Position numbers and translations under genes: made by a program | From: Proteobacteria bacterium SG_bin4 | Lineage (GTDB): Bacteria > Pseudomonadota > Gammaproteobacteria > Burkholderiales > Nitrosomonadaceae | Direction: 5' to 3' | Assembly: GCA_002083395.1 (NCBI GenBank) | Contig: LWDH01000035.1 | Coordinates: forward strand, 41,403 to 105,402 | Length of the DNA: 64,000 nucleotides | The notes under the pieces: generated by a model | What the model was told of the DNA's origin: nothing | What the model saw: only the letters and a program-made list of their open reading frames with translations | Database searches by the model: none | Part shown: in pieces, positions 21,258 to 45,741 of the stretch | Position numbering within the stretch: position 1 is the stretch's first letter | How the letters are laid out: every line of letters starts with the position of its first letter

Positions 21258-21749
21258 TCATGATTTTTCCGCTTCGACCAAACGTTTGATGTTTTGCACC
21301 GTACGTTCCGCGCCATCTTTGATGGCGACACGAACCAATCCTTCAAAAGGCCGCATAATCGCCAGAATTTCCAGCAACTCGAACGAAAATGTCAGCTTGG
21401 TTGACTGCGACGGATTGATTTCCTGCAACTCGTAAGTGCAGCGGAATGGATCGGATACGCCAACCAGCGTAATGCGCTGCCCCGGCTCGAAGGTTGAAAT
21501 TTTAAACTTCGATTCCGAACGCCGCCCTTGATCGACACGCACCTGCCGGCCTTCGGTGCCGAGCCGGACCGGCCCCGGCGTCAACTGCTCCAGCTCTTTG
21601 ACTTCCGGTGACCATTTCGGGTAATTGTCAAACAGACCGTCCCCGAGAAAGTGGAATAACTCAGCCGCCGGGCAGGATACGATCGTATTCGCCCGTCCGA
21701 TGACCGGATCGGTCGAACCCAGATTGAGCATGGAACCTAAATTGAACAT
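21258..21749 (-). CDS. SRPBCC (START/polyketide cyclase-like) family protein
   Basis: About 163 aa from the ATG at 21749; the ORF-track start at 21812 is a TTG. The size and pattern (IVSCPAAELFHFL...KWSPEV) fit the SRPBCC fold. Confidence 0.6.
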   Translation of the reverse strand: MFNLGSMLNLGSTDPVIGRANTIVSCPAAELFHFLGDGLFDNYPKWSPEVKELEQLTPGPVRLGTEGRQVRVDQGRRSESKFKISTFEPGQRITLVGVSDPFRCTYELQEINPSQSTKLTFSFELLEILAIMRPFEGLVRVAIKDGAERTVQNIKRLVEAEKS

Positions 21750-21960
21750 GGCGCTAACCCTTGATGGAAAATCCGGTTTGTCGATTGGCAGTGAATAGAG
21801 ACCATAAACCAATCAAGGGGGGATTTCAAGCAATTTGGGTGTTTGCCGAGTATTAAGGAAGGGAGAACGATGCAATCAAATTTGAATTCTTCTTCAGCTA
21901 TCAGGCGAAACATTCTGGAATTGGATAAATTGTTTAACTTTCTAAGACCCTGAGCATACT

Positions 21961-22324
21961 ATGATATCGCTGAGGGCGAGGTTACGAAGCTACAATATTT
22001 TCATTCAGGTCGGAGTGCTTTTGGTTCAATGAAATAGCTGTTAGTTAAAAGCTGCAAAGAAATGTCGATACAGAAGTTAGTAAAATTGACCTGAAGTAAC
22101 GCTACGAACCATTATCTGTATTCATCATGGAGAAAATGAATTTGCCAATGGAAAGCAGCATGTTAACAGTATCGAATCTTTCTGAAGTTTTGCAGAGAGG
22201 TCTGGCAAAATCAATGATTTTCTATTTGTATCTGAAAGAAACTGAATTTCGTTTTAATTATTATCGCGATAATCTCGACTATGAAATTCTCAACAAAACC
22301 CTAATACAGATATTATTTAAGTGA
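21961..22324 (+). pseudogene. Decayed IS1595-family (ISXO2-like) transposase remnant
   Basis: The 22127-22324 ORF ends ...LQRGLAKSMIFYLYLKETEFRFNYYRDNLDYEIL. This matches the conserved C-terminal tail (..AKRRL.KF.G....F.LYLKE.EFRFN.R..NL) of ISXO2-like transposases. Upstream frames show frame-shifted fragments (EGEVTKLQYFHSGR, GRGYEATIF) reminiscent of the DDE region. No intact ORF and no terminal inverted repeats were seen. Confidence 0.5.
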
Positions 22325-22337
22325 TAAAAACAAGCAA

Positions 22338-23243
22338 ATGAATAGAACACTTTTTCCACCGATTGAGGAGTCAGAAGAACAAGAACTAATTACCTCAGTT
22401 TATGAATTTGTAAAAGTAATAACTAGCGATAAATTTTATGACGAAAAATCTTTAATTGCATTTCGTGGGCATGCAGATGAATCATTCAAATTAGAACCTA
22501 AAGTTTTGCGGAAAGAACATTATAAAAAAAACGAAGATAGGCTATTGCGTGATCTAATTGCTTCACATCCCCATGAATTTAATTATGATCGAACTATGTT
22601 TGATAAATTAGTCAGGATGCAACATGTTGGCCTCCCTACTCGCCTTCTTGACGTTACAACCAATCCTTTGGTTGCGCTTTGGTTTGCAGTCAGTGAGAAA
22701 AAAGAAACCGATGGGGCAGTGGTGGTTTTTTTTATCAATTCAAAAGTAAAGTGCTATTTCGACAGCGATAAAGTAAGTCTCTTATCAAATTTGGCAGCTC
22801 TTCCTTACGAGGATAAGGAGTGCATCAAAAATAAAATTCTTGATGACCGCCTTCAAACTACACAATCAATCACGAGGTTTTTGCATTTCATCAAAGACGA
22901 GAAGCCATACTTTGAATCTAAAATTGACTTTCTTGATTTGCTAAAGGTTTTATACGTTATCCCAAAAATGAGCAATAAGCGGATTCTTGCACAGTCAGGA
23001 GCTTTTCTTCTTTTTGGTATTGATAAGAAGGATATTTATTACAATATAGAGGAGACGCAAGATAATGGAAATCCAAATTCATCCTTGATCTCCACAAAAA
23101 GAATCAAACTCGATCATGGATATAAGCCACAAATGAAGAAAGATCTTGAGAAACTAGGAATTCATGCTGGAACACTTTTCCCAGATTTCGATAAGAGTGC
23201 TGAATACCTTTCAGATCGATATAACAGGGTTACTGATACTTAA
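22338..23243 (+). CDS. FRG domain-containing protein
   Basis: 301 aa. The eponymous motif AFRGHADESFKLEPKV is followed by MQHVGLPTRLLDVTTNPLVALWFAV. The gene is strongly AT-rich compared with its flanks. Confidence 0.85.
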   Translation: MNRTLFPPIEESEEQELITSVYEFVKVITSDKFYDEKSLIAFRGHADESFKLEPKVLRKEHYKKNEDRLLRDLIASHPHEFNYDRTMFDKLVRMQHVGLPTRLLDVTTNPLVALWFAVSEKKETDGAVVVFFINSKVKCYFDSDKVSLLSNLAALPYEDKECIKNKILDDRLQTTQSITRFLHFIKDEKPYFESKIDFLDLLKVLYVIPKMSNKRILAQSGAFLLFGIDKKDIYYNIEETQDNGNPNSSLISTKRIKLDHGYKPQMKKDLEKLGIHAGTLFPDFDKSAEYLSDRYNRVTDT

Positions 23244-23552
23244 AAATAGTCTGCTTATTTTATCTTCTTAGTTCTAATCTCAATGTTCTACGCCACAAAT
23301 ACTCAAGTCTGCGCAGACACGAACTTGTAGGTGTCGATTGGAGAGAGGAATTATCTACCAATTACTCCTGTGCATTCATGATCAACATGGAATGTCCGGA
23401 TAAGCCATTCAACTCGACACAATTAATCGAATGCAGATTGGCGTTTTCTATGTATCTGACTCGGGCAATTCTCTTAGTTTTGGTGTCGCCGAGTAGCATC
23501 ACTTTAAGTTTAATTTTAACGAGCAACAGGAGCAAGAGAACGCCCAAATATA

Positions 23553-25091
23553 CTACAACGTCTGCCGTTGAGTGAAGTCTTTTAAGCGGAATCCGAGCAG
23601 CCAGAGCGCGGCGAAATAACTGGCGGCACCGGCGATGACTACGCCGCTGAGTTGCGTGGCGCGGGATAATGCCGAGCCGCTCAGCCAGGCGGCGTCATTG
23701 CCGGCGGCGAACCACAGCACGATGCCCATGACCGCCAGCGCCAGCAGTATTTTGGCAAAGAAAACCAGCCAGCCGGGTTGCGGTTGGTAAATGGCTTGCT
23801 TACGCAGTTGGTAAAACAACAATCCTGCATTCAAGCAAGCGCCGAGTCCGATCGCCAGCGCCAGCCCGGCGTGCTGCAGCGGCGTGATGAAAATCAAGTT
23901 CATCAGTTGCGTGGCGATCAAGGTGATGACGGCGATTTTGACCGGTGTTTTGATGTTCTGGCGGGCATAGAATCCCGGCGCGAGCACTTTTACCAGGATG
24001 ATGCCAAGCAAGCCGACGCTGTACGCAACCAGGGCTTCGCGTGTCATCCAAACATCGTGTTCGGTGAAAGCGCCATGATGGAACAGGGTGGTGATCAGCG
24101 GTACCGACAACAAAGCGAGCGCGAGTGCGGCTGGGAGCGTCAGCAGCATGGTCATGCGCAAGCCCCAGTCGAGCAGCCGGGAATATTCATCGTTGCTGTT
24201 GGTGCTGTAATGCTTGGCCAGCGACGGCAGCAAAATGGTGCCGAGCGCGACGCCGAGCAGACCGGCGGGAAATTCCATCAGCCGGTCGGCGTAATACATC
24301 CAGGAAACGCTGCCGGTTACCAGCAACGAAGCGAATATGGTATTGATCAACAGGCTGAGCTGGCTGACCGATACGCCGAAAATCGCCGGTCCCATGAGTT
24401 TGAGCACGCGCCACGCGCCGGTATCCGGATTGCGGAACTGGATACGCGGCATTAATCTGAGTTTCAACAAAAAAGGGATTTGGAACGCCAGCTGTAAAAT
24501 GCCGCCGATAAAAACCGCCCAAGCCAGCGCTAGAACCGGCGGATCGATCAAGGGTGTCAACCAGAATGCGCAACCGATGAAGGATAAATTCAGCAGCGCC
24601 GGGGTGATGGCCGGTACATTGAATTTCCCGTAAGTATTGAGGATGCCGCCTGCCAACGCCACGAAAGAAATAAACAAAATATAGGGAAAGGTGATTTGCA
24701 GCAGTTGCACGGTTAAATCGAATTTTTCCGGATCGGCAGAGAATCCGGGCGCGCTGGCGTAGATGATGAACGGTGCCGCGATAATGCCGAGGGCTGTCAC
24801 CAGGAACAGCACGCCGCCGAGCAGCATTGTGATGTGATCGATCAAACTGCGGGTTTCTTCATGCGTGCGGGTGTTTTTATATTCGGCGAGGATCGGAACG
24901 AAAGCCTGCGAAAAAGCCCCTTCGGCGAACAGCCGCCGCAGCAGGTTGGGGATGCGAAACGCGACAAAAAAAGCATCGGTTGCCATTCCTGCACCAAAAA
25001 TCCGTGCGATCAGGATGTCGCGCACGAAACCGAGGATGCGTGACACGAAAGTCATACTGCTGACCGCGGCGAGGGCTTTAAGGAGATTCAA
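23553..25091 (-). CDS. murJ: Lipid II flippase MurJ (MviN)
   Basis: 512 aa. [35 protein letters not shown] is the canonical MurJ N-terminus. The protein is polytopic. TTG start. Confidence 0.95.
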
Positions 25092-25137
25092 TGGCTTGAG
25101 ATATTTATGCTAGTAGTGGGCAACGGTGTGATAACTG

Positions 25138-25163
25138 CAGGCTGGATTTTTCAATCCAGCCTG
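25138..25163 (-). terminator. Perfect 11-bp hairpin downstream of the 25213-25935 gene
   Basis: CAGGCTGGATT-tttc-AATCCAGCCTG. No clear U-tract follows on the minus strand, so a terminator function is uncertain. Confidence 0.3.
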
Positions 25164-25212
25164 GTCTGAGTGATTTAATTTTGTGACTGTGTAATTGGAT
25201 AGGGAAGACAAT

Positions 25213-25935
25213 CTAAAAAAGGCAACTTACTTTCTTCAGCAGACCTTCTTCTTCCCAATTCCACTGCAGGCAATATTCCGCGCCCCGTTTCGGGTTTTTC
25301 ACTTCCGCATCGATTTTTGTGTTTCCGGAGATTACGGGAGGCAATAACGCTTCTTCTTTACCGTCATGGACGCAGAAAAAACGCGCAGTTGCAATGGCGC
25401 GTCCTGAAGGCAGTTCGACGGTCATGTGCAAGCGTTGCGTATCGTCGTCGACGACATGCGACAGTATGCCTTCGTTTTGGGTGAAAGCACCTTCGCATTG
25501 ATACGTTAAAGTTAAATCGGAACCGTCAATCACTTTCAACTCAGGCGGGAATTTCATGCAGACATGGTAGTTGTCGTTTTCTTTTCTTTGTTCAGCCGGG
25601 TCGCCATTGTTGATGCGGAAATTGCTGATGCTGCCGATGGCGCGGATATTTTTGAACCAGTATTCTGAATTATCGCTATGGCATGCGGTGATCATTTGTG
25701 TTTGTGTCACAGTTGCTTTTTTTCCGCAGGTATCATGCACGGTCAGTATTTTTCTTAAATCCGAGATGGAAAATGCAAACTTGTTTTGTCTGATTTGGTC
25801 GGCGATCAGCAGCGCGGCGCAAAGAGCGAAAATCAATCCGATCGCTATGAAATCGGTCGCCAGTGCGACGAACACACCAAAGGCAAGCATGACGATGTTG
25901 ATGTAAAAAATAATCTGGTTAGGTTTGTCAAACAT
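25213..25935 (-). CDS. Hypothetical membrane protein (two N-terminal TM helices plus a ~170-aa soluble domain)
   Basis: 240 aa. ATG with an AAGGAG RBS. No recognisable domain. Lower GC than the housekeeping flanks. Confidence 0.6.
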   Translation of the reverse strand: MFDKPNQIIFYINIVMLAFGVFVALATDFIAIGLIFALCAALLIADQIRQNKFAFSISDLRKILTVHDTCGKKATVTQTQMITACHSDNSEYWFKNIRAIGSISNFRINNGDPAEQRKENDNYHVCMKFPPELKVIDGSDLTLTYQCEGAFTQNEGILSHVVDDDTQRLHMTVELPSGRAIATARFFCVHDGKEEALLPPVISGNTKIDAEVKNPKRGAEYCLQWNWEEEGLLKKVSCLF

Positions 25936-26035
25936 TCGGAACTCCTTAAGTTAGCAGGCGTATTTTTATAATAATTTTCGAAGCGCTGAGTTTATCAGAG
26001 AGGCGCATTCAAAAAAAGAAAGATAGGGTAGGGAA

Positions 26036-26170
26036 GCATTGATTAATTGCCTGCGCTAGTGATTTGCTGCGTTGAGCGGTGCTCAGAAACTTGTCTATCG
26101 TATTGATATATCTCGTTCCTTGCGCTTCATCCGCCTTGCATCTCATCTTACCCGGTGAATTGATAAGCGT
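26036..26170 (+). repeat. Intergenic palindromic element, copy A (decayed arms)
   Basis: Collinear with copy B over its whole length, for example TGATTAATTG..CTGCGTTGAGCGGTGCTC..GTCTATCGTATTGATAT..CGCCTTGCATCTCATC..GAATTGATAAGCG. It lies about 70 nt upstream of the hvfA-like gene. Confidence 0.55.
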
Positions 26171-26238
26171 TTCCTTTGTTTTAATTCGGCGTTATCATCA
26201 TCGATTGTCGTTGTTTTAATTTTTTATGGAGATAAAAG

Positions 26239-26577
26239 ATGTCGAAAAAATCAGTTAAACCAGTTTCACTCGCGGTAAGTGCTGCATTGGTCACCAGTCT
26301 TGGTGCCGGTGATTTGTTGGCGGATAGCAGCGCCAATCCGTTTGCGATGAATGAATTATCCGGCGGTTACATGCAACTGGCCGATGCCAGCAGCGCCAAT
26401 AAACCGGCGCAAGAAAGCGGTAAAGAATCCAAACAAAATATGGAAGGTAAATGCGGCGAAGGCAAGTGTGGCGGCAAAACTGAGATGAAGCAAAACATGG
26501 AAGGCAAGTGCGGCGGTAAGAAGGCCGAACAAGAAGGTAAATGCGGCGAAGGCAAATGCGGTTCTTCTAAAAAGTAA
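26239..26577 (+). CDS. hvfA: HvfA-family exported RiPP precursor/metallophore protein with five EGKCG motifs
   Basis: 112 aa. It has a Sec-type signal peptide (MSKKSVKPVSLAVSAALVTSLGAGDLLA), a conserved NPFAMNELSGGYMQL block, then EGKCGEGKCGG, EGKCGG and EGKCGEGKCG (Cys72, 77, 91, 102, 107). GGAGA RBS. It lies immediately upstream of the DUF692 and DUF2063 genes. Confidence 0.8.
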   Translation: MSKKSVKPVSLAVSAALVTSLGAGDLLADSSANPFAMNELSGGYMQLADASSANKPAQESGKESKQNMEGKCGEGKCGGKTEMKQNMEGKCGGKKAEQEGKCGEGKCGSSKK

Positions 26578-26580
26578 CCA

Positions 26581-27447
26581 ATGCAACCCATGAGCAGCCG
26601 GTCATTTCCTGTTCATGGCGCGGGCCTGGGTCTGCGGCGTTCGATGCTGAGCTCGCTGACGGATCAGGCCACGCAATCCGTCGATTTCTGGGAAGTGGCT
26701 CCGGAAAACTGGATTGGTGTCGGTGGCCGGTACGGCCACCAATTTCGACAGCTGACCGAGCGATTTCCTTTTATCTGCCACGGACTTTCGTTGTCGATCG
26801 GCGGTCCGTCACCGCTTGACGAAGCTTTCTTGCACAAGCTCAAGCGTTTCCTGAAAGATCATCATATCCGCACTTACAGCGAGCATTTGAGTTATTGCAG
26901 CGATGACGGTCATTTATACGATTTGCTGCCGATCCCGTTTACCGAAGAAGCGGTTTTTTATGTAGCAAGCCGGATCCGGCGCGTTCAAGAAATCCTTGAA
27001 CAACGTATCGCAATCGAGAATGTTTCTTATTATGCGGCGCCTGGAAAGCAACTGGAGGAAGCCGACTTCATCAATGCGGTATTGCAGGAAGCCGATTGCG
27101 ATTTGCTGTTGGATGTGAATAATATTTATGTCAACAGCGTCAACCATGACTACGATGCCGAGGCATTTCTGCTGCGCTTGCCGGTGGAACGTATCCGCTA
27201 TCTTCATGTGGCCGGACACTATCAGGAAGCAGCCGATCTGATCGTCGATACGCACGGCGCCGATGTCATCGATCCGGTATGGCAATTGCTCGATAAAACC
27301 TATCAGCGTTTGGGTGTTATTCCAACCTTGCTTGAGCGCGATTTCAATATTCCACCGATCGCTGATTTGTTGCGTGAAGTGGCAACGATCCATTCGCTTC
27401 AAACCAAATGGCGCAATGAAACGGGCGGTTACTTACAACACGCCTGA
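26581..27447 (+). CDS. hvfB: MNIO (DUF692/MbnB-family) RiPP maturase, HvfB-like
   Basis: 288 aa. Carries [44 protein letters not shown] and LHVAGH, the TIM-barrel multinuclear non-heme iron enzyme pattern of DUF692. It starts 3 nt after the precursor stop. Confidence 0.9.
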
Positions 27448-28201
27448 CCGGCCGGATTTTGTGCGCCAGCAATATGCCTTTGCAGCGCACATTCGTGATC
27501 CGGAAAAAAATCCGCATCCACAAGCCGTCGAGGCACGGCGCATGAAGCTCTACTGCGAGCTGTTTTATAACAACGTGGAGGATATAATTGCCAATACCTT
27601 TCCGGTATTGCGGAAGATTTTACCGGATAATCATTGGCATGCATTAATCCGGGATTATTTCGCCCATCATGTGTCGCGAACTCCTTTGTTTCCGGAGATA
27701 CCTCGGGAGTTTCTGAAATACCTCGAGTCTGAGCGGAAAAACAGCGCTGACGATCCGCCTTTCCTGTTCGAGTTGGCGCATTATGAATGGGTGGAGCTGG
27801 CGCTTGCTATTTTTGATGAAAGCCTGATCGAGGCTGAAGCCGATGCTGCTGGCGATTTACTGGACGGAATCCCGGCAGTTTCGCCGTTAGCGTGGTTACT
27901 TTGTTACTCGTTTCCTGTGCATCGGATAACTGCGGACTTTCAGCCCGATAGGGCGGGCGCATTAAAGACGAATCTGATCATTTACCGGGATCGGGAATTT
28001 GATGTGCAGTTTATTGAAATCAATAAAATAACAGCGCGTTTACTGCATTTGATCGGTGAAAATAAAATCAAGTCCGGGTTGATGCTGTTGCACCAAGTAG
28101 CCGCGGAAATGAATCATCCGCAACCCGAAACGGTTATTCAGGGCGGCATTCAAATTTTGAACGATCTCAGGAAGCTCGGGGTGGTTTATCGTTTGCCATA
28201 G
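27416..28201 (+). CDS. hvfC: DUF2063-family RiPP maturation partner, HvfC/MbnC-like
   Basis: About 261 aa from the ATG at 27416, overlapping the hvfB end by 32 nt. [17 protein letters not shown]...[29 protein letters not shown] is the typical DUF2063 N-domain. The ORF-track start at 27263 lies inside hvfB and was rejected. Confidence 0.85.
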
Positions 28202-28301
28202 AACTCTCTGATTTTGATTGTAAAACTACAGATTCAATGTGCGCTGCCGTTAAGCTGCGTATGAAAAATGATGAGGACGTTGGTTTTACGGTATTTCAAA
28301 A

Positions 28302-29027
28302 ATGAGCGTATCTGAGAACAACAATTCGAACACTGGTAACTTTTCCGCTGAACCCGATCTGATGAATTTCCTGGTATCTTCGATTCATGATACTAAGAAT
28401 TCGGTGTGTCTGTTATTGAACAGCCTGGAAAAAGCGCTGGCGAATGCCGATGCTAGGAAACTCGCTGCGCATACCGAACTGGTACGAGTGAATGCCGAAG
28501 CAAAACGCGTTAACAATAACCTGGTGCAATTGTTGACGCTCTATCAATTCGGACAAAGAGTCTATCCTTTGGATGTGCAATATATCAGTCTAAGGGATTT
28601 TATAAGCGGTATTGTTGCGCAATATTCCGATTTACTGCGATTTCGTGAAATTACCCTTGAAGCCCATATAAATCCGGAGCTGCATTGGTATTTTGACGAG
28701 GACCTGGTTAATGCGGTTATCGGCAATGCCATCAATAATGCCATCCGTTATACCCGAGACCGTATTCGTATTGCCGCCGAAGAGAGAGATGGGCGGTTGT
28801 TACTGCGCGTGGAAGATAATGGGCGCGGTTATCCGGTTGCAATGCTGCAGGATAACGATGGTAATTTCATCCACCGTATAGATCCTTTGGAGAATAGTAC
28901 TGGATTGGGTTTTTATTTTTCAGCCAAGGTTGCACGAATGCACCGGAACCATGGCGTGGCGGGAAAATTGAAGCTGGAAAACGGCGGTTCTATGCAGGGT
29001 GCTTGTTTTCTCCTGTATCTTCCTTAA
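28302..29027 (+). CDS. Soluble minimal histidine kinase (DHp plus HATPase_c, no sensor or TM domain)
   Basis: 241 aa. H-box SSIHDTKNSV, N-box NAINNAIRYT, G1 EDNGRGY and G2 GLGFYF. Confidence 0.8.
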   Translation: MSVSENNNSNTGNFSAEPDLMNFLVSSIHDTKNSVCLLLNSLEKALANADARKLAAHTELVRVNAEAKRVNNNLVQLLTLYQFGQRVYPLDVQYISLRDFISGIVAQYSDLLRFREITLEAHINPELHWYFDEDLVNAVIGNAINNAIRYTRDRIRIAAEERDGRLLLRVEDNGRGYPVAMLQDNDGNFIHRIDPLENSTGLGFYFSAKVARMHRNHGVAGKLKLENGGSMQGACFLLYLP

Positions 29028-29048
29028 TAAATTTCAAGATCTTAAAAC

Positions 29049-30689
29049 ATGATTACAAGTCCTACCAATTTTTCTCCCGTTAGCTTGAATCTCTCCGGAA
29101 AAAATATTCTGATTGTCGATGACTATCAGGAAATGCGGACAATCCTGCGCGATATTTTGCGCAATCTGGGTGCCGATGTTAAGAGAATGCATATGGTTGC
29201 AACGGGTGAAGAAGCGATTGCAATACTGAGGAAGGTGCAATTTGATGTGGTTTTGTGCGATCTTGTATTGGGCACAGGAAAAAATGGCCAGCAAGTGCTT
29301 GAAGAGGCAAAGTACCATTCGCTGATTAGTCCATCTTGTTTGTGGGTAATGATTTCCGCTGAAAAAGCCGCAGAAGCTGTTACCGGTGCGGCGGAATTCC
29401 AACCCGATGCATATTTGATTAAGCCCGTCACGGAAACGAATTTATGCATACGGCTGGAAAAGATCTGTCTAAAAAAGAAAGCTTTTGCCGAAATTCATCA
29501 GGCGATCAAGCGCTCTGATTATGGTGAAGCACTGAGTTTGTGTGATCAGAAGCTGGTATCCGATAAGGCGAATACGGCTGATTTGCTGCGTACGAAATGC
29601 AATTTATTAGGGATGACCGGGGAACTGGATCGAGCCCAAAGTTTATTGGAAGAAATTCTTTCTAAGCGCGAATTGCCGTGGGCCAAAGTGGCATTGGCAA
29701 GAATCTTTCTGAAGAAAAACGAATTGAACCAGGCCAAGATGCTGTTGGAAGAGACCATTGAAATTAATCCCGCGTATATTGAAGCCCATGATCTCTTGGC
29801 GCAATCGCTGCAAGCAATGGATGATTTGGAAGGAGCCAATGATGTGCTGGAGCGTGCAGCTAAGCTGTCACCCAATTCTGTGATACGGCAACAAAATCTG
29901 GGAAGCTTGTCGCTAAAACTTGGGAAATTGGAAAATGCCGAACGCGCTTTCCGGAAGAGCATCGCTCTGGGTGAAAATTCAGCACTGAAGAAAGCGGATA
30001 ATTATCTGGGGCTGGTCAAAGTATGCAACGCAAAAAATAATTCCGATGAAGCGCTGAGGGTGTTGGGTCAGCTCACCAAGAATCTTAATGGCGATGATGT
30101 TCGCCGCAGGTCTTTGGCGGCTGCGGGATTAATCCATCATCAGAGGGGGGATGTGGAAAAAGCCGCGCAACTCGCTTTAGAGTTGGACCAGTCGTTGCCT
30201 AACCAAGATGAGCGTGCTTTATCGAGCGAGGAATCGCTGGAGGTGGCTCATTTATTGCTGGTCGCCGGGGATAAGGAGAAAGCCATCCGGCTACTGCAAA
30301 GCGAAATCAAAAATAATCCCGAGAACCCGGCTTTGCATAAAGATGTTTCAAATATCTTCGAGCAAGTTGGCATGCAAGAGGAAGGCAGCCAGTTGATTGA
30401 GGCTACGCGCCAGGAAGCGATGCTGGTGATGAATCGTGGCGTGTTACTGGTTAGCAAAGGGGAATATGAGGAAGCACTTTGCGCGATGCGTGAAGCTCGT
30501 GCTGCAATGCCGTCCAATGTGCGGGTATTATTGAATCTGGCGCATGTGATTATTGCGTATATCCAGAAAAACGGCGCTGCACCCGACCTGGTTGAGGAAG
30601 CGCGCAACAGTCTTATGGCGGCAAACGAACTATCTCCGGGAGAGCCTCGCTTTAAACGATTGCTGGCTTCATTGAATGAACTCGTTTAG
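29049..30689 (+). CDS. Response regulator with a receiver domain and a long TPR-repeat output region
   Basis: 546 aa. REC domain (ILIVDDYQEM..., phospho-acceptor in DVVLCDLVLG, KP motif LIKPV), then about 400 aa of TPR-like repeats. No DNA-binding domain. Confidence 0.85.
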   Translation: MITSPTNFSPVSLNLSGKNILIVDDYQEMRTILRDILRNLGADVKRMHMVATGEEAIAILRKVQFDVVLCDLVLGTGKNGQQVLEEAKYHSLISPSCLWVMISAEKAAEAVTGAAEFQPDAYLIKPVTETNLCIRLEKICLKKKAFAEIHQAIKRSDYGEALSLCDQKLVSDKANTADLLRTKCNLLGMTGELDRAQSLLEEILSKRELPWAKVALARIFLKKNELNQAKMLLEETIEINPAYIEAHDLLAQSLQAMDDLEGANDVLERAAKLSPNSVIRQQNLGSLSLKLGKLENAERAFRKSIALGENSALKKADNYLGLVKVCNAKNNSDEALRVLGQLTKNLNGDDVRRRSLAAAGLIHHQRGDVEKAAQLALELDQSLPNQDERALSSEESLEVAHLLLVAGDKEKAIRLLQSEIKNNPENPALHKDVSNIFEQVGMQEEGSQLIEATRQEAMLVMNRGVLLVSKGEYEEALCAMREARAAMPSNVRVLLNLAHVIIAYIQKNGAAPDLVEEARNSLMAANELSPGEPRFKRLLASLNELV

Positions 30690-30711
30690 ATTTGCCTCGC
30701 GTTAAGTTCTC

Positions 30712-32346
30712 TCAGCTAACATAGAAATTCCGCATCATACCCATATCCTCGTGTTCGAGATTGTGGCAATGGTAAAGAAAAAAGCCTTTGAAATCATTAA
30801 AAGGTTTGATTATCTCAATTTCTTCCCCCGGCATCACCAGAACGGTATCTTTCCAGCCGCTGTTGATAAAACCGTGTTTCACAGTTTCGTAGGCGCTATC
30901 CTGATGAGTTTGCATCCGCGAGAGGATTTGAAACTGTTGACCATGCAAATGGATGGGATGCGGCATCGACATCATCATTCCCATCCCCATGCCTCCACCG
31001 CGTCCACCGCGGCGCATGCCACCGCCCATTCCCCGATTATCATGAAATATCTTAATTCTTTGAATGGAATTAACCGGAATTTGCTCGGATTCCATGTAAT
31101 CGTACATATCAAATGTTCTGCCATTTAGCTGGAACGCCATGTGCCGCATGCCGATGGCGATTGGAACAACTCTGTCAGGGTGGGTGAGGTCCTGAGGCGT
31201 TAAACGCGGCATTGGGATAAGTGTTTCCGGTAACTTCGGTGAATCGCTGATCTGCTCGGCGATCTGGAATTTTGCGATGGTGATTGTTTCATCCTGGCCA
31301 AAGGGAGCACCCATCATGCCCATTCCATCGCCTCCCATGCCACGGCGCATCCCTCCTCGCATGCCGCCGCCTCCCATATGAGAACTGGAGTCGCCAAAAG
31401 CCAGGCTTTGCAATGTGATGTCAGAACCTGGTTTGCGGCCGCTGAAATCAATCCACAATTCTACGCGCTCAGCGGGGGCAAGCATCACATAGGGTAAGTT
31501 TTGCGGCTTTTCCAGTAAACCGCCGTCGGTTGCGATTGCAGTGATCGGGGTGCCGTCACTCCATGCGAGTTTATAAATCCGCGCATTTGATCCATTCAGG
31601 ATGCGCAAGCGATAGGCTCTGGTTTTTACCGGAATGGAATAGTCTTTCTGTCCGTTTGCGAGAATGACATCGCCATGAAACCCCCGCATTCTTTGGTGCA
31701 TGCCTAGTATGTAGCGAAGCTGATTACCGCTGGAGAAGCTGCGATCCTGAATAATCAGCGGGATATCGAATTCGCCGCTAGGCAGACCTAATTTCCGTTC
31801 TTTCTCATCGGAAACCGTGATAAGTCCCGCTAAGCCTTGATAAACTTGCGGCGCGGTTAGCTCGTGGGTATGCGAATGATACCAGTTGGTACCGGCTGGA
31901 TTGGTTACCTCGAATTCATATAAGTACTGTTCGTCCCGATGGATGGCATACATCGGATGTCCGTCCATCGGTTGGGGGACATGCATGCCGTGCCAGTGCG
32001 TAATGCATGGCTCCGGTAATTGATTGCTGAAATAGATTCGAACTTTCTGACCTTGCTCAAAATTGAGAATAGGACCTAAATAGCCTGGCAACTCTTTAAG
32101 CGTAGATGAAGGTCCTTTAAGCAGTTTGCCAGTGTATTTAAAAACATGCGTGAGCGGACCGGGTAATATGGAAACATCGGAAGTCTGCGCATTCAATGCG
32201 ATTTCTACATCGGCCTTGAATAAAGGATTGGGTGTCATGTTACTTCCCTGTCTTGTCGCACAACTCAATCCCGGGATTGTTGCGGCAAAAGTGCCTGCTG
32301 CTGCATATTGTAGGAATTGACGTCTTTTATAATTGATATTTGTCAT
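30712..32346 (-). CDS. TAT-exported multicopper oxidase (CueO/CopA-like) with two Met/Gly/Arg-rich inserts
   Basis: Twin-arginine signal YKRRQFLQYAAAG. Copper motifs HWHGMH, WYHSHTH, HPIHLHG and HCHNLEHEDMGMM. The ATG at 32346 with a GAAGAGGG RBS is preferred over 32364. Confidence 0.9.
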   Translation of the reverse strand: MTNINYKRRQFLQYAAAGTFAATIPGLSCATRQGSNMTPNPLFKADVEIALNAQTSDVSILPGPLTHVFKYTGKLLKGPSSTLKELPGYLGPILNFEQGQKVRIYFSNQLPEPCITHWHGMHVPQPMDGHPMYAIHRDEQYLYEFEVTNPAGTNWYHSHTHELTAPQVYQGLAGLITVSDEKERKLGLPSGEFDIPLIIQDRSFSSGNQLRYILGMHQRMRGFHGDVILANGQKDYSIPVKTRAYRLRILNGSNARIYKLAWSDGTPITAIATDGGLLEKPQNLPYVMLAPAERVELWIDFSGRKPGSDITLQSLAFGDSSSHMGGGGMRGGMRRGMGGDGMGMMGAPFGQDETITIAKFQIAEQISDSPKLPETLIPMPRLTPQDLTHPDRVVPIAIGMRHMAFQLNGRTFDMYDYMESEQIPVNSIQRIKIFHDNRGMGGGMRRGGRGGGMGMGMMMSMPHPIHLHGQQFQILSRMQTHQDSAYETVKHGFINSGWKDTVLVMPGEEIEIIKPFNDFKGFFLYHCHNLEHEDMGMMRNFYVS

Positions 32347-32528
32347 GATTAATCCCTCTTCCATCAGTGAGATAGCAGCGGTACGCGGTCAACAATTCAA
32401 CGCGTAATTTATCTGCGATACTGGGATTAGTGTATCAGTTCAAGCATGACAAGTAATGTACTTTATGCTTAAGTGATTGAGCGTAAGAAGTTTTGAGGCT
32501 CAGGATCAGGGTAACGGAAACCGATGCA

Positions 32529-34436: not shown

Positions 34437-35804
34437 TTAATTACTCAAAAAATGAGTTATCAGAATGGAATAACCCAATCCCGCACTTGCACAAGCACCG
34501 ATGACCGTGACCAACCCAATTTTATGTTTGAACAAAGCATAAAATGCGATGCCGCCAATCACGGCTGAGAACCATTCAAATGGCCCGCCAAAGCCGTTTG
34601 GCCAGAGTACATGGTAAGCAAAAAAAACCGCCAAATTTACAATAACGCCGACCACGGCTGCGGTGATGCCTGTCAGCGGCGCGGTGAATTTGACATCGTG
34701 ACGGGTAGCCTCGACTGCAGGAGCGCCCAATAAGATAAAAAGGAATGAAGGCAAAAACGTAAAGAGCGTGGCAATCAATGCACCGGCAATGCCTGCTAGA
34801 TATAACAGATCGGCTCCAAAAAGCGCTTTGGTCCAGCCACCGACAAATCCCACAAAAGCAACGATCATGATGAGCGGACCAGGTGTGGTTTCACCCAAAG
34901 CCAATCCATCGATCATTTGCGTTGCGCTCAACCAAGCATAGTGCTCGACGCCTCCTTGATAGACGTAAGGTAACACTGCATAAGCACCGCCAAAAGTCAT
35001 TAGCGCAGCTTTTGTGAAAAACCAACCCATCTGTGTCAGCGTGCCGTTCCAGCCATATTGAACCGATAACAAAGCCATTACCGCGCACCAGATAGTGAGT
35101 CCGATCAGCGCAAAAGCAATAAAACGGCTCCATTTGAAACGAGCATGTTCCGGAAGCGGCGAATCATTATCAATGATCGCGGGGCCGTAGCGATGGCTTG
35201 AATCGATAGCGTGTTTGCCAGCTTGAAATTTGTCCGGCATGAAATGCGAGCCGATATAACCGATCAGGCCAGCCGATACCACGATGTAAGGAAAGGGAAA
35301 ATCGAAAACAAAGATCGCGATAAAAGCTAATATTGCGATAGCGCGCAATAGATTGTTCCTTAAAGCTTTGCTGCCGATACGGTAAGCTGCAAATAAGACA
35401 ATAGCGGTTACCGCTGGCTTGATGCCGTACAAAATTCCGGCAACTGCCGGAATTTCGCTGTAAATTAGGTAGATCCATGTCAGAACTATCAAAATAAGCA
35501 GCGACGGTAATACAAATAAGGTGCCGGCAACAATTCCACCCCAAGTGCCATGCATCAACCAGCCGATATAAATCGCCAGCTGCTGGGCCTCCGGGCCAGG
35601 TAGCACCATCGTATAATTCAATGCATGCATGAAGCGCTGTTCAGAAATCCAACGCCGTTGTTCGACCAGCTCTTGATGCATCAGGCTGATTTGGCCGGCT
35701 GGCCCGCCGAAACTAATGAAGCCAAGCTTAAGCCAGTATCGAAAAGCCTCCCAAAATGATACCGGCCCGGGTGGAGCGGGAGCATGCTCGGTTGTTTCTG
35801 ACAT
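34437..35804 (-). CDS. chrA: Chromate transporter ChrA (CHR family, two-domain long form)
   Basis: 455 aa. FWEAFRYWLKLGFISFGGPAGQISLMHQELVEQRRWISEQRF is the CHR signature. A second repeat contains FGGAYAVLPY. Confidence 0.9.
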   Translation of the reverse strand: MSETTEHAPAPPGPVSFWEAFRYWLKLGFISFGGPAGQISLMHQELVEQRRWISEQRFMHALNYTMVLPGPEAQQLAIYIGWLMHGTWGGIVAGTLFVLPSLLILIVLTWIYLIYSEIPAVAGILYGIKPAVTAIVLFAAYRIGSKALRNNLLRAIAILAFIAIFVFDFPFPYIVVSAGLIGYIGSHFMPDKFQAGKHAIDSSHRYGPAIIDNDSPLPEHARFKWSRFIAFALIGLTIWCAVMALLSVQYGWNGTLTQMGWFFTKAALMTFGGAYAVLPYVYQGGVEHYAWLSATQMIDGLALGETTPGPLIMIVAFVGFVGGWTKALFGADLLYLAGIAGALIATLFTFLPSFLFILLGAPAVEATRHDVKFTAPLTGITAAVVGVIVNLAVFFAYHVLWPNGFGGPFEWFSAVIGGIAFYALFKHKIGLVTVIGACASAGLGYSILITHFLSN

Positions 35805-37678: not shown

Positions 37679-39748
37679 TCAAAGCGACTTAAGGAACTCA
37701 ATCAAGTCCAATCGTTGTTCTTTATTCAGAGCTGGAAGAATGGAGCCGTCAGGTAGCGGCGTCCGTCCGGAGGCATACTCATGACCCTCGTTATAATTCC
37801 CCCAAATATGGGTGCGGAATAAAAATCCTTGATATCCTGTTGTCTTAAAACCCACTTTTTCGGGATCGAATTCACGCGAGCCGACCATGAATTCGTCTGG
37901 ACGATATTCACCGTCATCAGGATCGCCGGGACGCTTTTTAGGCAATAGCAAATCATAGAGCGTTGGAACAGAACCGTTATGCAAATAGGGCGCTGTAGCC
38001 CAGATACCGTTCAAAGGCCGCGCCTTATAGGCCATTGCGGATGCAAAAGGAGATACGGTGCTGTCGGGGGCATAGTTGCCAGTCTTTAAAGATGATCGCA
38101 CCTCATTATCAAAAAAGGTGTAGGCGAAATCGAACGATCGCTCGAGCCATCGCCGGATAAACCATGTGTCGTTGTCGGGGGTGGTGACGACATTGCGCGT
38201 TGCTGCGGTTAGCAGCGCCACAACGGGTGCTTGTTGCTGCAATAAAATATCTCCGGTGCTGACGCTCACATACTGATTTCTTAAGATGCCGCTATAACCG
38301 GGAAATTCAATTGCATTTGTCGCCATTTTTGAATCTGTCCCAACCGAATGAACCGAGATCATTCGAGCGACAATCCGCCGATCCGGGTCAGTGCGATTGA
38401 TAAGGCTATGGCAGGCGGCGCAGTACTCCGAATAAATTTCCGCGCCTCGAGCCATTCGTGTTTTGTCGATGCGCGGCAGGATATGCTCAGGCCATGACGG
38501 GGAAGTTAATTTGCGCAGATGATTTTCCACCCGGCGCAGATTCCGGATATCGATTGAGGACTGGAAGTCGATATGTTTAGAACCGAATCCTTGCCCGCCT
38601 AATACCGAAGATAAAGTGAAACCGTCCTTTTCCTGCCAATCCAATGTCGCGAAAACGCCAATGACCTGCCCGGCGTTGCGAGCCATAGGTCCTAATCCGC
38701 TATTATCAACCCGGCCATTCCATTGGATATAGTCATGCTGCGGAACATCCCAGAGAAAAGGGTAACTGACGGGTGCATCGGCCGGGTTATAGATTTTGTT
38801 GCGTAGCCGGATCAATTGTTTGTCGGTTAAAAAATTTTGAGTTTTTTCTATCACGTGATCGCGATCTTGGCTGCTCAAAACCGATTCGACATTGGACAGG
38901 ACTGTTGCCAGTTCATCTTCGGACAGAATGTCAGCCAGCAACTCGCGTAGTTGCTGCGCGCTCATAATATGTTCCAACACACGATTATAAATCCGTCCGA
39001 ATGCATCCAGCCGGGCGTAGCCATAGCGTGTCAGCGGGCGTTTGCTATCTCGCGGTGAGTTGATGATGGTGTACGTTTTAATGCGCTGGGTGTATTTCTT
39101 GAGATCGGACAAAATATCGCTAGCGTTATCGTAGCCGTCTCGTTTCAACACATTCGCGATAAAACGATCCCGTTTTTCAGGATTTTCCAGGGTAGCGTGC
39201 AGGGCGGCTGCCAGGTCCACCATGAAGGTTTCCATATCGGAATTTGCCGGTCCGCCATCGATGCGTATTCCAGTGCCTTGGTAATTGATTTGCGTGGTGT
39301 GACAAGCCGCGCAGGTGAATCCCATATAGGCTTTGCCTTGATATTCGTCACGTACCATACCGGCAGGGAGACCGTCCGGATTGCTGGCGGTTGGCCGCTG
39401 CGGAAGATAACCGTACCGATCCATATTTTCATTACTGCGGAACAAAGCCGTAGAGTCCGCTTGCTCAAGCGCTAGAAAAAAACTATACGGCAATAAATTG
39501 GAACCTTGCGTGACGGCATAGAACCACAGGCTATCGGCGGCAGACCAACCCTGATCAAGATAGGCAATTCGTGAGAAAGAGCCGCTAAATTTGTCTGTGC
39601 CGCTAGTAATCGCGCCGCGCTCTGCATCGGCGTCGCGTAATTCGTACGAACGCCAGGAAATCCCAACTACAAGCCATGTCATCGCTAATAGGATGATTAT
39701 CAGTAGTAATTTTTTCAATGGATAACTTCTTCGATGCTTGGGGTTCAT
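37679..39748 (-). CDS. Large di-heme c-type cytochrome (CCP/MauG superfamily, RoxA-like)
   Basis: 689 aa with an N-terminal signal anchor. It has two CxxCH motifs (CAACH at residues 146-150 and 443-447). YPFLWD and APYLHNGSVPTL blocks are typical of di-heme peroxidase-like proteins. Confidence 0.75.
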   Translation of the reverse strand: MNPKHRRSYPLKKLLLIIILLAMTWLVVGISWRSYELRDADAERGAITSGTDKFSGSFSRIAYLDQGWSAADSLWFYAVTQGSNLLPYSFFLALEQADSTALFRSNENMDRYGYLPQRPTASNPDGLPAGMVRDEYQGKAYMGFTCAACHTTQINYQGTGIRIDGGPANSDMETFMVDLAAALHATLENPEKRDRFIANVLKRDGYDNASDILSDLKKYTQRIKTYTIINSPRDSKRPLTRYGYARLDAFGRIYNRVLEHIMSAQQLRELLADILSEDELATVLSNVESVLSSQDRDHVIEKTQNFLTDKQLIRLRNKIYNPADAPVSYPFLWDVPQHDYIQWNGRVDNSGLGPMARNAGQVIGVFATLDWQEKDGFTLSSVLGGQGFGSKHIDFQSSIDIRNLRRVENHLRKLTSPSWPEHILPRIDKTRMARGAEIYSEYCAACHSLINRTDPDRRIVARMISVHSVGTDSKMATNAIEFPGYSGILRNQYVSVSTGDILLQQQAPVVALLTAATRNVVTTPDNDTWFIRRWLERSFDFAYTFFDNEVRSSLKTGNYAPDSTVSPFASAMAYKARPLNGIWATAPYLHNGSVPTLYDLLLPKKRPGDPDDGEYRPDEFMVGSREFDPEKVGFKTTGYQGFLFRTHIWGNYNEGHEYASGRTPLPDGSILPALNKEQRLDLIEFLKSL

Positions 39749-39976: not shown

Positions 39977-41395
39977 ATGCAAACTTATCTACTTAAGTAC
40001 CTGCTTCCAAGCTTAATCGTCATAATCGCATCAAATATCACTTTAGCGCAACCGATGGCTCCTCTTCCTTTAGGAGCGGATTCATTAAGACAGCCCGAGC
40101 CGTCATCACCCGCTGTGCGCGAAATGGCGCCAGCCATGGTGCCGTTCAAAAGTGAATTACCTAAGTCGGATGTGTCGTTGCCGGCGGGTGAAGCGCAAGA
40201 ACCGGCTGTACTGTATACCATAGAGGAAATACAACGCATCGGGTTAGAAGCGAACGGTCTTGTCCAAGCCGCTCGTTCGCAAATTAATATGGCGAAAGCT
40301 GGTGTAGTAGCAGCTTCCGCATTCCTCAATCCCGAAGTTACGGTAACGGCCGGACCTGATAGCAATCGCTACTCCTTGGCTATTACCGGACCTACATCGA
40401 TGCAGCGCTCTGTAACCGTTAATCAGCCGATTGAGAATCCTTTCATGCGTAGCGCTCGCATTAATGCATCGGAAGCCATTGTTGATGCCAGCCGCGCCAG
40501 CTTTGATCAAGTACGCGCCGATTTGGCAGCACAATTGCGTGTCCGCGCTTACGAATTGCTGTTGCGCCAAGAACAAGCCACCATTGAACAAGGTATTTAT
40601 GATTTATTAGAAACTCTGCGTAACCGCATTGCTGCCAATGTTGAAAGAGGTGAAGTCGCACGATTTGAATTAATTCGTGCCGACACAGAATTGCAGAGTG
40701 CAGCTAACCGCGCTCAAGCAGCACGCCTGACGGTGCAGCGTGCAAGAGTTTTGCTATTGCAATTGTTGGCGGGCGCAATTCCAGGCAATTTTCAAATTAG
40801 AAATTCTTTGAAAGACCCTATTCAGTTGCCCTCGCTGGAAGAATTGCGCGAACAAGTACCTAAAATCAATCCCGATGTCATGCGCCTGCAAGCAGAACAG
40901 GAACGAGCCAATCATCGAATCAGTCAAGAAAAAGCTTCTGTATTGCCACAAATCAGTGTGTTGTACACCAATTATCAGGATGCGCAATTCACATCCAATA
41001 TTGCCGGTGCGAGTGTTCGAATTCCGATCTGGTACCGTCGCCGCGGTGAAATCGATACTGCCATTCATGATTCTGCACGTATCCGGGAAACGCTCGAATT
41101 CCGCCGCTACGAAATCAGCCAATTATTTGAGGCAGCATGGCAAGCCTTGGAAATTGCGCAACGGCGAGTGGACATATTTGAAGGCGGTTTGATCAAAGAA
41201 GCAGAAAATGTCGTGCAAGTCGCCCAGACTGCTTATCGATTTGGTGAACGTGGTTTAATCGAGTTTCTCGATTCGCAACGCATTTTCCGCGGCATCATAA
41301 GCGATTCCATGCTGGCACGTTTTGAACTGCAATCGGCAGCCGCTGAAATTGATCGTCTGCGCGCACATTATCCCAAGGAGTTAATTCCAGAATGA
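39977..41395 (+). CDS. TolC-family outer-membrane efflux protein (CzcC/CusC-like)
   Basis: 472 aa. Signal peptide and two-repeat OEP architecture. It overlaps the next gene by 4 nt (ATGA). Confidence 0.85.
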   Translation: MQTYLLKYLLPSLIVIIASNITLAQPMAPLPLGADSLRQPEPSSPAVREMAPAMVPFKSELPKSDVSLPAGEAQEPAVLYTIEEIQRIGLEANGLVQAARSQINMAKAGVVAASAFLNPEVTVTAGPDSNRYSLAITGPTSMQRSVTVNQPIENPFMRSARINASEAIVDASRASFDQVRADLAAQLRVRAYELLLRQEQATIEQGIYDLLETLRNRIAANVERGEVARFELIRADTELQSAANRAQAARLTVQRARVLLLQLLAGAIPGNFQIRNSLKDPIQLPSLEELREQVPKINPDVMRLQAEQERANHRISQEKASVLPQISVLYTNYQDAQFTSNIAGASVRIPIWYRRRGEIDTAIHDSARIRETLEFRRYEISQLFEAAWQALEIAQRRVDIFEGGLIKEAENVVQVAQTAYRFGERGLIEFLDSQRIFRGIISDSMLARFELQSAAAEIDRLRAHYPKELIPE

Positions 41396-42546: not shown

Positions 42547-42552
42547 CTCGGG

Positions 42553-45500: not shown

Positions 45501-45741
45501 TACCGTGCTGGGACTGGCGCCTTTCCTTGCCGCAACGGGATTGGGTTCCGAAATTCAAAAACCGCTCGCTGTGGTGGTTATTTTCGGATTGACGACAGCG
45601 ACGATGATGACGATGGTGGTGATGCCGATGATTTATCGCTGGTTTGACGATATACCGGATAAAAAGCTACCTGAACCCGATAACCAGCCTGAGCTTTTAC
45701 CTTTGGCTGATGAAGGACAAAATTCTGTCAAGAACTCCTGA
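42553..45741 (+). CDS. Heavy-metal efflux RND pump, CusA/CzcA family
   Basis: 1062 aa with the 12-TM RND layout. TM4 carries GMMVDPTVVVVEN (D..EN proton relay). The size and N-terminus are typical of HME-RND. The metal specificity cannot be read from the sequence. Confidence 0.95.
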   Translation: MKAIVSAMLRQRLIVLIMGLILCAAGVGAIKVLSVDAFPDVTNIQVQVATVAIGRSPEEMERLVTVPVEIAMTGLPGLVEMRSMNKSGLSLITLVFTDQTDVFFARQLVMERIIDVTPRLIPGITPVLGPVSTGLGEVYQYTIDHPDDGKRQLTVEELMERRTVQDWVVRPMLRSIRGVAEVNSMGGHVKEYQVYVDPNKLRHYDLTLTDVDRALANNNANASGNILALQYEQYLIRGVGLIATLDDIRNIILREMDGVPVYVRDVAHVTFGGEVRQGASIKNGDTEAVAGIVMMLRGGNAKEIVGRIKEKVNEVNEKGMLPNGLQIVPFYDRTDLVDSALGTVQSTLTESLILVIVVLSIFLGTVRTSIVVCFTLIITPLVTFLVMNYYGLPANLMSLGGLTIALGMMVDPTVVVVENIYQRLGEAKDSGKSKFDVIVDATAEVGTPVIFGLIVTVLVFLPLMTLEGMEGKTFSPLAVTISISLFIALIVSLLLSPVLSDYLIKGGSEQDTKIVATMKNAYLWFFDLAYNNQKKTMIIAISSLAVAIALFPLLGKSFIPIMKEGAITPVIIRAPSISLDEAIKIETEAMKLIAAVPGVKSVVSKLGRGDTPADPASQNESDPIADLDLEGSGRTQAEIEEDIRKALSVLPGANIVLSQPIAQRVDEMLTGVRSQVAIKIFGDDLEQLRKLSEQVARIVKSTPGARDIRIERLSGQQELTVNIDRRAIARHGLNVSDVNEMIATAVGGKFVSQVFEGERRFTLLLRFPEEFRHDVEAIKELLLRPAIRTPNGAGSGSMLIPLSAVADIQVVDGPAIISREFARRRVVIGVNVHGRDLGGFVAELQERTAKEIRLPSGYYFVWGGQFENMERAMAKLSIIVPITLAAIFFMLFTLFNSVKMAVLIYLVLPFASVGGVVGLFLTGQYLSVPASVGFIAVWGTSILNGVVLISFLRELRQKGLNVRDAARQACSQRFRPVMMTAATTVLGLAPFLAATGLGSEIQKPLAVVVIFGLTTATMMTMVVMPMIYRWFDDIPDKKLPEPDNQPELLPLADEGQNSVKNS

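Follow-up and report, generated by a model that had tools for sequence, protein, structure and literature searches.

An hvfABC-type (captophorin) operon in Nitrosomonas that probably makes an exported copper-buffering peptide

The DNA analysed here, hereafter the window, is a stretch of 64,000 nt of contig LWDH01000035.1 (assembly GCA_002083395.1, positions 41,403 to 105,402), filed under Proteobacteria bacterium SG_bin4, and it comes from a Nitrosomonas of the oligotropha/ureae lineage. Three tightly packed genes lie on its forward strand: hvfA (26239..26577), encoding a 112-residue precursor of the captophorin or Buf_EGKCG/oxazolin type of ribosomally synthesised and post-translationally modified peptide (RiPP); hvfB (26581..27447), encoding a 288-residue cytoplasmic multinuclear non-haem iron oxidase (MNIO; DUF692); and hvfC (27416..28201), encoding a 261-residue partner of the DUF2063 or PME-type-1 family with a C-terminal NGO1945_C domain. 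The ATG of hvfB, at 26581, sits 3 nt past the TAA of hvfA, and the ATG of hvfC, at 27416, overlaps the end of hvfB (stop at 27447) by 32 nt. An earlier, sequence-only reading of this DNA had proposed just such a three-gene unit, of the HvfABC type, for an exported RiPP with up to five copper-binding Cys residues; its coordinates, gap and overlap are borne out to the base, and the assignment is supported by the family models and iron ligands described below. Gene context was compared across 80 related loci, precursors across the 63 loci in which one was found, and HvfB across 79 homologue sequences.

The hvfA product begins with a predicted Sec-type signal peptide (residues 1-28; 26239..26322, forward strand), called by inspection, hydropathy profile and conservation. 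A basic n-region, MSKKSVK, leads into a hydrophobic stretch, residues 8-22, where the Kyte-Doolittle mean over 11 residues reaches 2.1, and cleavage is predicted after Ala28, between LLA and DSS, a residue that in an alignment of 25 precursor homologues is invariant and precedes a polar stretch. The frame of the signal peptide as a whole is likewise invariant in that alignment. Shortly after the signal peptide, residues 33-48 (26335..26382, forward strand) form the motif NPFAMNELSGGYMQLA, in which P34, F35, E39, L40, G43, Y44, M45 and A48 are invariant in the 25 homologues; the strict NPF...GY pattern matches 41 of the 63 related loci with a precursor, gammaproteobacterial ones included, and most of the others carry near-variants. 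This segment, NPFxxxELxxGYM(Q)LA, may be what the HvfC partner recognises. In FonA, the precursor of the related Fontimonas thermophila system, a single-site Ala scan of the residues before the core found no single position to be essential.

The core region (26443..26562, forward strand) carries five EGKCG motifs arranged as pair-single-pair, which start at nt 26443, 26458, 26500, 26533 and 26548 and present Cys72, Cys77, Cys91, Cys102 and Cys107 as targets. Open reading frame, hydropathy and motif count all agree with the 112-residue, Sec-signal protein with five EGKCG motifs that had been described. The Cys residues of the precursor are confined to these motifs, and its tail is rich in Lys, Glu and Gly. 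EGKCG is found nowhere else in the six frames of the window (base-shuffled copies contain a mean of 0.02), and in a repeat search the motifs were covered by one DNA repeat family, D1. The first pair, EGKCGEGKCG, is invariant across the 25 homologues and the remaining sites are variable. Two antisense open reading frames of 74-76 codons lie opposite the repeats (26356-26591, reverse strand), with similar ones in related loci; we regard them as artefacts of a repetitive, GC-balanced coding sequence and not as genes.

A total of 641 homologues of the precursor were found, the nearest of which come from Nitrosomonas genomes and metagenomes; several of the Nitrosomonas proteins already bear the UniRef name "HvfA family oxazolone/thioamide-modified RiPP metallophore". 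Pfam gave no match to the precursor, DUF2282 included. The HvfA-family domain model NF050137 (KCGExKCG_twice) reaches 42.9 bits where 19.5 are required, and the strict HvfA equivalog model NF050188 reaches 27.6 bits where 95 are required, with only residues 61-109 aligned. Because the latter score falls below its cut-off and no Cys lies outside the EGKCG motifs, we regard the precursor as a member of the HvfA family but not as an HvfA orthologue in the strict sense. AlphaFold2, run with the 25-sequence alignment, returned a model with a predicted local distance difference test (pLDDT) value of 52, a predicted template modelling score (pTM) of 0.11 and no secondary structure. The mature product, of about 84 residues, is thus probably disordered, and the description of the peptide as protein-sized does not hold; the absence of a predicted fold agrees with the loosely ordered manner in which EGKCG peptides have been proposed to bind copper. 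A beta-helix fold, reported for mid-size members of the family, was considered and found to be unsupported for the short Nitrosomonas precursor (pLDDT 52).

HvfB matches Pfam PF05114 (MbnB_TglH_ChrH) with E = 4.3e-107 and NF003818, the model of HvfB-family MNIO-type RiPP peptide maturases, with 453.2 bits against a cut-off of 360; its scores on the models of BufB (NF050167, 271.6 bits) and MbnB (TIGR04159, 42.6 bits) lie below the respective cut-offs of 310 and 325. The nearest solved structure is 3BWW (E = 1.6e-80), and an exact-sequence look-up of HvfB returned no identical record. The sequence blocks of DUF692 listed in the earlier reading are all found, as HGLS at residue 67, SEHLS at 100, IENVS at 145, DVNN at 178 and HVAGH at 209. 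In MbnB, the iron atoms are held by H54, H90, E133, D163, N166, H192, D208, H210 and E239 (PMC9060507), and the corresponding residues of HvfB, all of which are present, are H67, H102, E146, D178, N181, H209, D223, H225 and E252. This mapping was made from spacing and from HMMER alignments to structures: 3BWW covers all nine positions, whereas the alignments of MbnB (7DZ9) and TglH (8HCI) begin at about residue 115-130 and take in just the last six or seven ligands, and the first two His ligands are tied to MbnB by spacing and the 3BWW alignment only. No iron ligand is missing from HvfB in these alignments, a lack that the sequence-only reading had named among its grounds for refutation, and the nine ligands together with the catalytic base, D254, are invariant in the 79 homologues. 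The site-3 ligands of Haemophilus influenzae HvfB, N175, D242 and H244, are required for activity (10.64898/2026.07.17.739211); their equivalents here are N181, D223 and H225. The Lys-Cys determinants of FonB, Arg15/Arg16, the base Asp249 and Phe250, are likewise matched by R19/R20, D254 and F255, with R19 and F255 invariant in the 79 sequences and R20 replaced by Lys in one.

The longest mechanical open reading frame for hvfC opens at 27263. The best start is nonetheless 27416: homologue alignments favour it, as does the HvfC model, whose match starts at residue 18 of the resulting 261-residue form. HvfC scores 85.5 bits on PF09836, 99.6 bits on PF22106 and 306.9 bits, against a cut-off of 142, on NF050145, the model of HvfC-family RiPP maturation proteins, and it matches PDB entry 3DEE (NGO1945) with E = 1.6e-7. 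Searches with family hidden Markov models, which the earlier reading had suggested, therefore place all three proteins above curated NCBIfam family cut-offs. No hydrophobic N-terminus was seen in the hydropathy profiles of HvfB or HvfC. In the related loci hvfB and hvfC as a rule overlap, by between 1 and about 60 nt, which is consistent with translational coupling of a B-C heterodimer.

Two signals, and no others, are conserved upstream of hvfA. One is a Shine-Dalgarno sequence, GGAG (26228..26231, forward strand), placed 7 nt before the ATG and conserved in the alignment of Nitrosomonas upstream regions. The other is the -10-like hexamer TATCAT (26193..26198, forward strand), the T-A-T-x-A-T positions of which are invariant in 14 of 14 aligned Nitrosomonas upstream regions, including loci with other upstream genes; it is a candidate promoter element for hvfA, although a scan for consensus promoters recognised no complete sigma-70 promoter at this site. 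A promoter and terminator scan of 25800-29100 gave matches no commoner than in shuffled sequence, a search for regulator operators and repeats upstream turned up nothing but short repeats, unconvincing and without conservation in other loci, and an Rfam scan of 25000-31000 at E <= 1 gave no matches. The base composition at the locus bears no sign of a foreign island, and a PADLOC scan of the neighbours returned nothing for the hvf locus itself.

In a genome scan, the closest relatives of HvfB were those of Nitrosomonas sp. ACE_PRO53 (89% identity), Nitrosomonas oligotropha Nm45 (82%) and Nitrosomonas ureae Nm13 (77%), followed by those of gammaproteobacterial metagenome-assembled genomes (65-77%). 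The A-B-C unit is present in all Nitrosomonas loci compared (30 or more). The number of target Cys residues per precursor ranges from two to eight in Nitrosomonas and reaches 14 in gammaproteobacterial loci. Some Nitrosomonas precursors (L007, L012, L021, L017-L020 and L032) retain just the EGKCGEGKCG pair, and their later motif positions have decayed to forms such as MEDKGD or EGKDG, without Cys. A DoxX gene (hvfX or bufD in the named clusters) follows hvfC in 21 of the 80 related loci, every one of them outside Nitrosomonas (confirmed with Pfam). None was found in the Nitrosomonas loci examined, and a six-frame search of the window by tblastn with six DoxX proteins, and with a profile built from them, gave nothing better than E = 0.2. 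The minimal A-B-C form shows that the fourth gene is dispensable in the whole genus. The Nitrosomonas series, with two to eight target Cys residues around one invariant pair, could help to define the minimal functional unit, and the conserved NPFxxxELxxGYM segment offers a testable candidate for a partner-recognition site.

Taken together, these observations argue that the locus is a three-gene hvfABC-type, or captophorin, operon that makes an exported copper-buffering peptide in Nitrosomonas, a reading to which we give a probability of roughly 85%. The characterised homologues on which we draw are HvfABC of H. influenzae, FonABC of F. thermophila and NgoABC of Neisseria gonorrhoeae. Their enzymes, HvfB-HvfC, FonB-FonC and NgoB-NgoC, are heterodimers carrying up to three Fe; in its active state HvfBC holds a mixed-valent diiron cluster, the formation of which requires HvfC. 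Oxidation of an EGKCG Cys by such enzymes removes 4 Da and creates a chromophore at 302-305 nm, and the products bind Cu(I). By analogy, hvfA would be translated into the 112-residue precursor, which would be bound in the cytoplasm by an HvfB-HvfC heterodimer, a TIM-barrel di- or tri-iron enzyme with its DUF2063 partner, probably with the involvement of the NPFxxxELxxGYMQLA segment. Each EGKCG Cys would then undergo an O2-dependent four-electron oxidation to a 5-thiooxazole (-4 Da per Cys, chromophore near 302-305 nm), after which the modified peptide would be exported by the Sec system and its signal peptide cleaved after Ala28. The resulting Lys/Glu/Gly-rich and probably unstructured periplasmic peptide, of about 84 residues, would chelate Cu(I) through the sulfur and nitrogen donors of up to five thiooxazoles and would therefore buffer periplasmic copper.

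The nature of the heterocycle deserves comment, since the sequence-only reading had assigned oxazolone/thioamide groups to EGKCG motifs, an assignment now outdated: the oxazolin, fontiphorin and gonophorin products were reassigned to 5-thiooxazole in 2025-2026 by two groups (10.1101/2025.11.18.689057 = PMC13097082; 10.64898/2026.06.05.730506). Oxazolone/thioamide pairs, as in methanobactin, were the original assignment for HvfA (PMC11252979); they share the mass change of the 5-thiooxazole and have a similar absorbance, and NCBIfam and UniRef names still read "oxazolone/thioamide-modified". The revision, however, was made by the original authors using selective 13C/15N labelling (10.64898/2026.06.05.730506), and the Mitchell group independently found 5-thiooxazole in hvf, fon and ngo products. 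Furthermore, the enzyme scores 453 bits on the HvfB model and 42.6 on that of MbnB (cut-off 325), and its partner is a DUF2063 protein, not MbnC. That the Nitrosomonas product would carry oxazolone/thioamide pairs in place of 5-thiooxazoles is thus highly improbable.

Several points weigh against the reading of the locus as a copper-buffering captophorin operon. The reading as a whole leans on homologues for its application to Nitrosomonas. The precursor misses the HvfA equivalog cut-off and lacks the two N-terminal disulfide Cys residues of HvfA. Neither the window nor any of the Nitrosomonas loci examined has DoxX/HvfX, a fourth gene that is common in such clusters though not obligatory. The upstream scans revealed no operator or regulator that would respond to copper. 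Lastly, FonBC in vitro left a peptide with one EGKCG repeat unmodified, so that modification of Cys91, the isolated middle motif, is less certain than that of the two pairs and makes it the least certain of the five sites.

The last of these points also feeds a different possibility, namely that the peptide handles a metal other than copper or functions in redox stress, or that modification in vivo is confined to some of its sites. Other metals and oxidative stress have both been connected with bufferin-type clusters, and the natural number of sites, from 2 to 14 Cys residues in related loci, together with the failure of FonBC to process a single EGKCG repeat in vitro, would fit incomplete use of the motifs. 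All characterised EGKCG products, however, bind copper, and the active-site and specificity residues of HvfB are intact and, but for the Lys found at R20 in one sequence, invariant in the 79 homologues. We consider this possibility quite unlikely.

Downstream of hvfC lie genes for a soluble histidine kinase (28302-29027, forward strand; 241 residues, with no transmembrane or sensor domain) and for a REC-TPR protein (29049-30689, forward strand) with no DNA-binding output domain. These could belong to the system, which would then comprise five genes and link the peptide to a phosphorelay. The gap between hvfC and the kinase gene is only about 100 nt, with no terminator called there, and the order A-B-C-kinase-regulator recurs in two different flanking contexts among loci of the N. 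oligotropha type, one running from MurJ and a 240-residue hypothetical protein to c9 and a TonB receptor, and the other from bacterioferritin and c11 to c15 and an ABC transporter. A homologue search, by contrast, found the kinase and REC-TPR pair free-standing, in unrelated contexts without hvf genes, in Rhodocyclaceae and other Betaproteobacteria (L081, L083 and L084). Moreover, loci of the N. ureae type carry hvfABC without the pair in an otherwise unchanged flanking context, none of the hvf loci outside Nitrosomonas has it, and the response regulator lacks a DNA-binding output domain. A five-gene unit is therefore unlikely, and a role of the pair as dedicated hvf regulators, considered in the light of the homologue search and of three genomic contexts, was largely rejected. 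Because it stands alone elsewhere and is missing from N. ureae-type hvf loci, the kinase pair is treated here as a neighbour and not as a component of the operon.

Beyond the pair, and convergent with the REC-TPR gene, lies a gene for a CueO-like multicopper oxidase with a twin-arginine translocation (TAT) signal (30712-32364, reverse strand), followed by chrA (34437-35804, reverse strand) and by a three-gene heavy-metal efflux operon (39977-45741, forward strand) that encodes a CusA/CzcA-family resistance-nodulation-division (RND) pump, a CzcB/CusB-like adaptor and an outer-membrane factor. The earlier description of a metal-rich neighbourhood stands insofar as the genes it named are all in the window. 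As a conserved feature it fails: among the relatives, only the closest one, L001, has the multicopper oxidase behind the locus, and flagellin, aminopeptidase, DUF3579 and di-haem cytochrome c peroxidase genes also lie between the locus and the RND pump. Adjacency to the multicopper oxidase was accordingly dropped as functional evidence, its position being shared by the window and L001 only, and the metal-gene context is not conserved evidence of function.

Some of these neighbours have features of their own. The multicopper oxidase contains two inserts rich in Met, Gly and Arg (e.g. GGGGMRGGMRRGMGGDGMGMMG, GMGGGMRRGGRGGGMGMGMMMSM). The di-haem cytochrome c peroxidase-family protein (37679-39748, reverse strand; 689 residues) has a RoxA-like cytochrome c segment, and its gene is divergent from the RND operon. 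On the other side of the locus, and divergent from hvfA, a gene at 25213-25935 (reverse strand) encodes the 240-residue protein mentioned above, which has a hydrophobic N-terminus and no match in Pfam, NCBIfam or PADLOC. Many Nitrosomonas loci keep it in the place between murJ and hvfA, at 65-85% identity; in L024 it lies beside the hvf genes (54% identity) with no murJ detected, and it is absent from the other hvf contexts. In other Nitrosomonas lineages the genes before hvfA differ. In L032, L033 (6516-7559) and L034 the gene preceding hvfA on the same strand encodes a small, 347-residue multicopper-oxidase-like protein, and in L007, L012 and L021 a bacterioferritin-like gene and then a gene for a 217-residue protein of no assigned family precede hvfA, also on the same strand. 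The upstream genes of these lineages are a second, independent juxtaposition with metal-related genes. Farther upstream in the window, an FRG-domain protein (PF08867; 22338-23243, forward strand) matches the PADLOC candidate defence family PDC-S15 with E = 1.9e-96; its gene lies in a stretch, at about 21500-23500, with a GC content of 0.35-0.41 against about 0.45-0.56 in the surrounding sequence, and this stretch may be a small acquired defence islet.

The neighbourhood and the host also bear on the physiological role. With the same chemistry, the main function of the peptide could be to store copper in the periplasm, or to chaperone it, for cupro-enzymes such as ammonia monooxygenase, NirK and multicopper oxidases, and not detoxification by buffering. 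The host is a Nitrosomonas, that is, an ammonia oxidiser whose need for copper is very high, and the hvfABC unit is retained in many Nitrosomonas lineages; a CueO-like oxidase is encoded nearby, and in L032-L034 the unit lies directly behind the small multicopper-oxidase-like gene on the same strand. The literature, for its part, calls the physiological role of EGKCG peptides unresolved. However, it is an excess of metal that induces the characterised relatives, and they give protection from copper stress (PMC12452194); moreover, the adjacency to oxidase genes is not conserved, and the several Nitrosomonas homologues with just two Cys residues would have a modest storage capacity. We consider the role of store or chaperone improbable as the principal one. 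Less probable still, and to be taken as very doubtful, is a more elaborate version, in which the DoxX-less hvfABC unit would make a disordered periplasmic thiooxazole peptide, a copper reservoir or chaperone for ammonia monooxygenase and other cupro-enzymes, the level of which, in the oligotropha lineage, would be tied to the kinase/REC-TPR phosphorelay and not to a classical copper-sensing transcription factor. If a reservoir or chaperone role were true, the peptide would correspond in function to the methanobactin of methanotrophs. Periplasmic copper buffering by an exported peptide remains our preferred reading.

Of the known systems, that of nontypeable H. influenzae, HvfABC(X) (PMC11252979; 10.64898/2026.06.05.730506; 10.64898/2026.07.17.739211), shares with the Nitrosomonas unit the order precursor-MNIO-DUF2063 partner, a Sec signal on the precursor, repeated EGKCG(EGKCG) motifs and all of the iron ligands, including the site-3 Asn, Asp and His. 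The Nitrosomonas unit differs in having no DoxX-like HvfX. HvfA has six target Cys residues in three AEGKCGEGKCG repeats, whereas the Nitrosomonas precursor has five, arranged 2+1+2, and lacks the N-terminal disulfide Cys pair. 3BWW, a close HvfB homologue, carries an insert of about 13 residues between its HxAGH and DTHG blocks that is missing from Nitrosomonas HvfB. The hosts differ as well, a pathogen in one case and a free-living chemolithoautotroph in the other.

The captophorin systems FonABC, which makes fontiphorin, and NgoABC, which makes gonophorin (PMC13097082 / 10.1101/2025.11.18.689057), have in common with the Nitrosomonas unit the EGKCG core and an MNIO with a PME-type-1 partner, and their enzymes share with Nitrosomonas HvfB the Arg-Arg and Asp-Phe signature of Lys-Cys-type MNIOs. 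An odd count of sites has a precedent in FonA, which has seven. They differ in taxon, repeat number and spacers, and the Nitrosomonas member is known from its sequence alone; the parts of the captophorin literature available to us assign no role to the NPFxxxELxxGYM segment. Bufferins, BufABCD (Buf1 = DUF2282, Buf2 = Buf_6/12Cys; PMC11626156, PMC12452194), resemble the Nitrosomonas unit in Sec export, in their closely related MNIO and DUF2063 enzymes and in the 5-thiooxazole chemistry and periplasmic copper sequestration that we propose for it. The bufferin precursor, however, is a folded domain with four or six Cys residues, whereas that of Nitrosomonas consists of EGKCG repeats with no DUF2282 match; HvfB scores 271.6 bits on the BufB model, against 310, and neither DoxX nor a sigma factor nor NrsF is encoded next to the locus. 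Methanobactin (MbnABC) has in common with the Nitrosomonas unit the MNIO superfamily, the same set of iron ligands and a copper-chelating heterocycle derived from Cys. Here the MbnB score is 42.6 against 325, the partner is a DUF2063 protein and not MbnC, the precursor has a Sec signal and not a leader peptide, the expected product is a 5-thiooxazole, and there are no MbnT or MbnE transport genes.

By every testable criterion, then, the locus is an uncharacterised member of the HvfABC/FonABC family. The sequence-only reading overstated its novelty: about 2,000 Buf_EGKCG/oxazolin precursors and >24,000 MNIO-PME1 loci have been catalogued (PMC12452194; 10.1101/2025.11.18.689057), and Nitrosomonas homologues already stand as HvfA-family proteins in UniRef. 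As the family has been defined chemically, enzymologically and bioinformatically, the locus adds no new principle, and we rate its overall value as low to moderate. No relevant paper came out of a literature search that paired Nitrosomonas with DUF692, MNIO or bufferin. What the comparison adds is the placement of a captophorin operon in ammonia oxidisers, whose central enzyme depends on copper, and its main interest lies in the copper-centred physiology of the host and in how the number of target Cys residues varies in nature.

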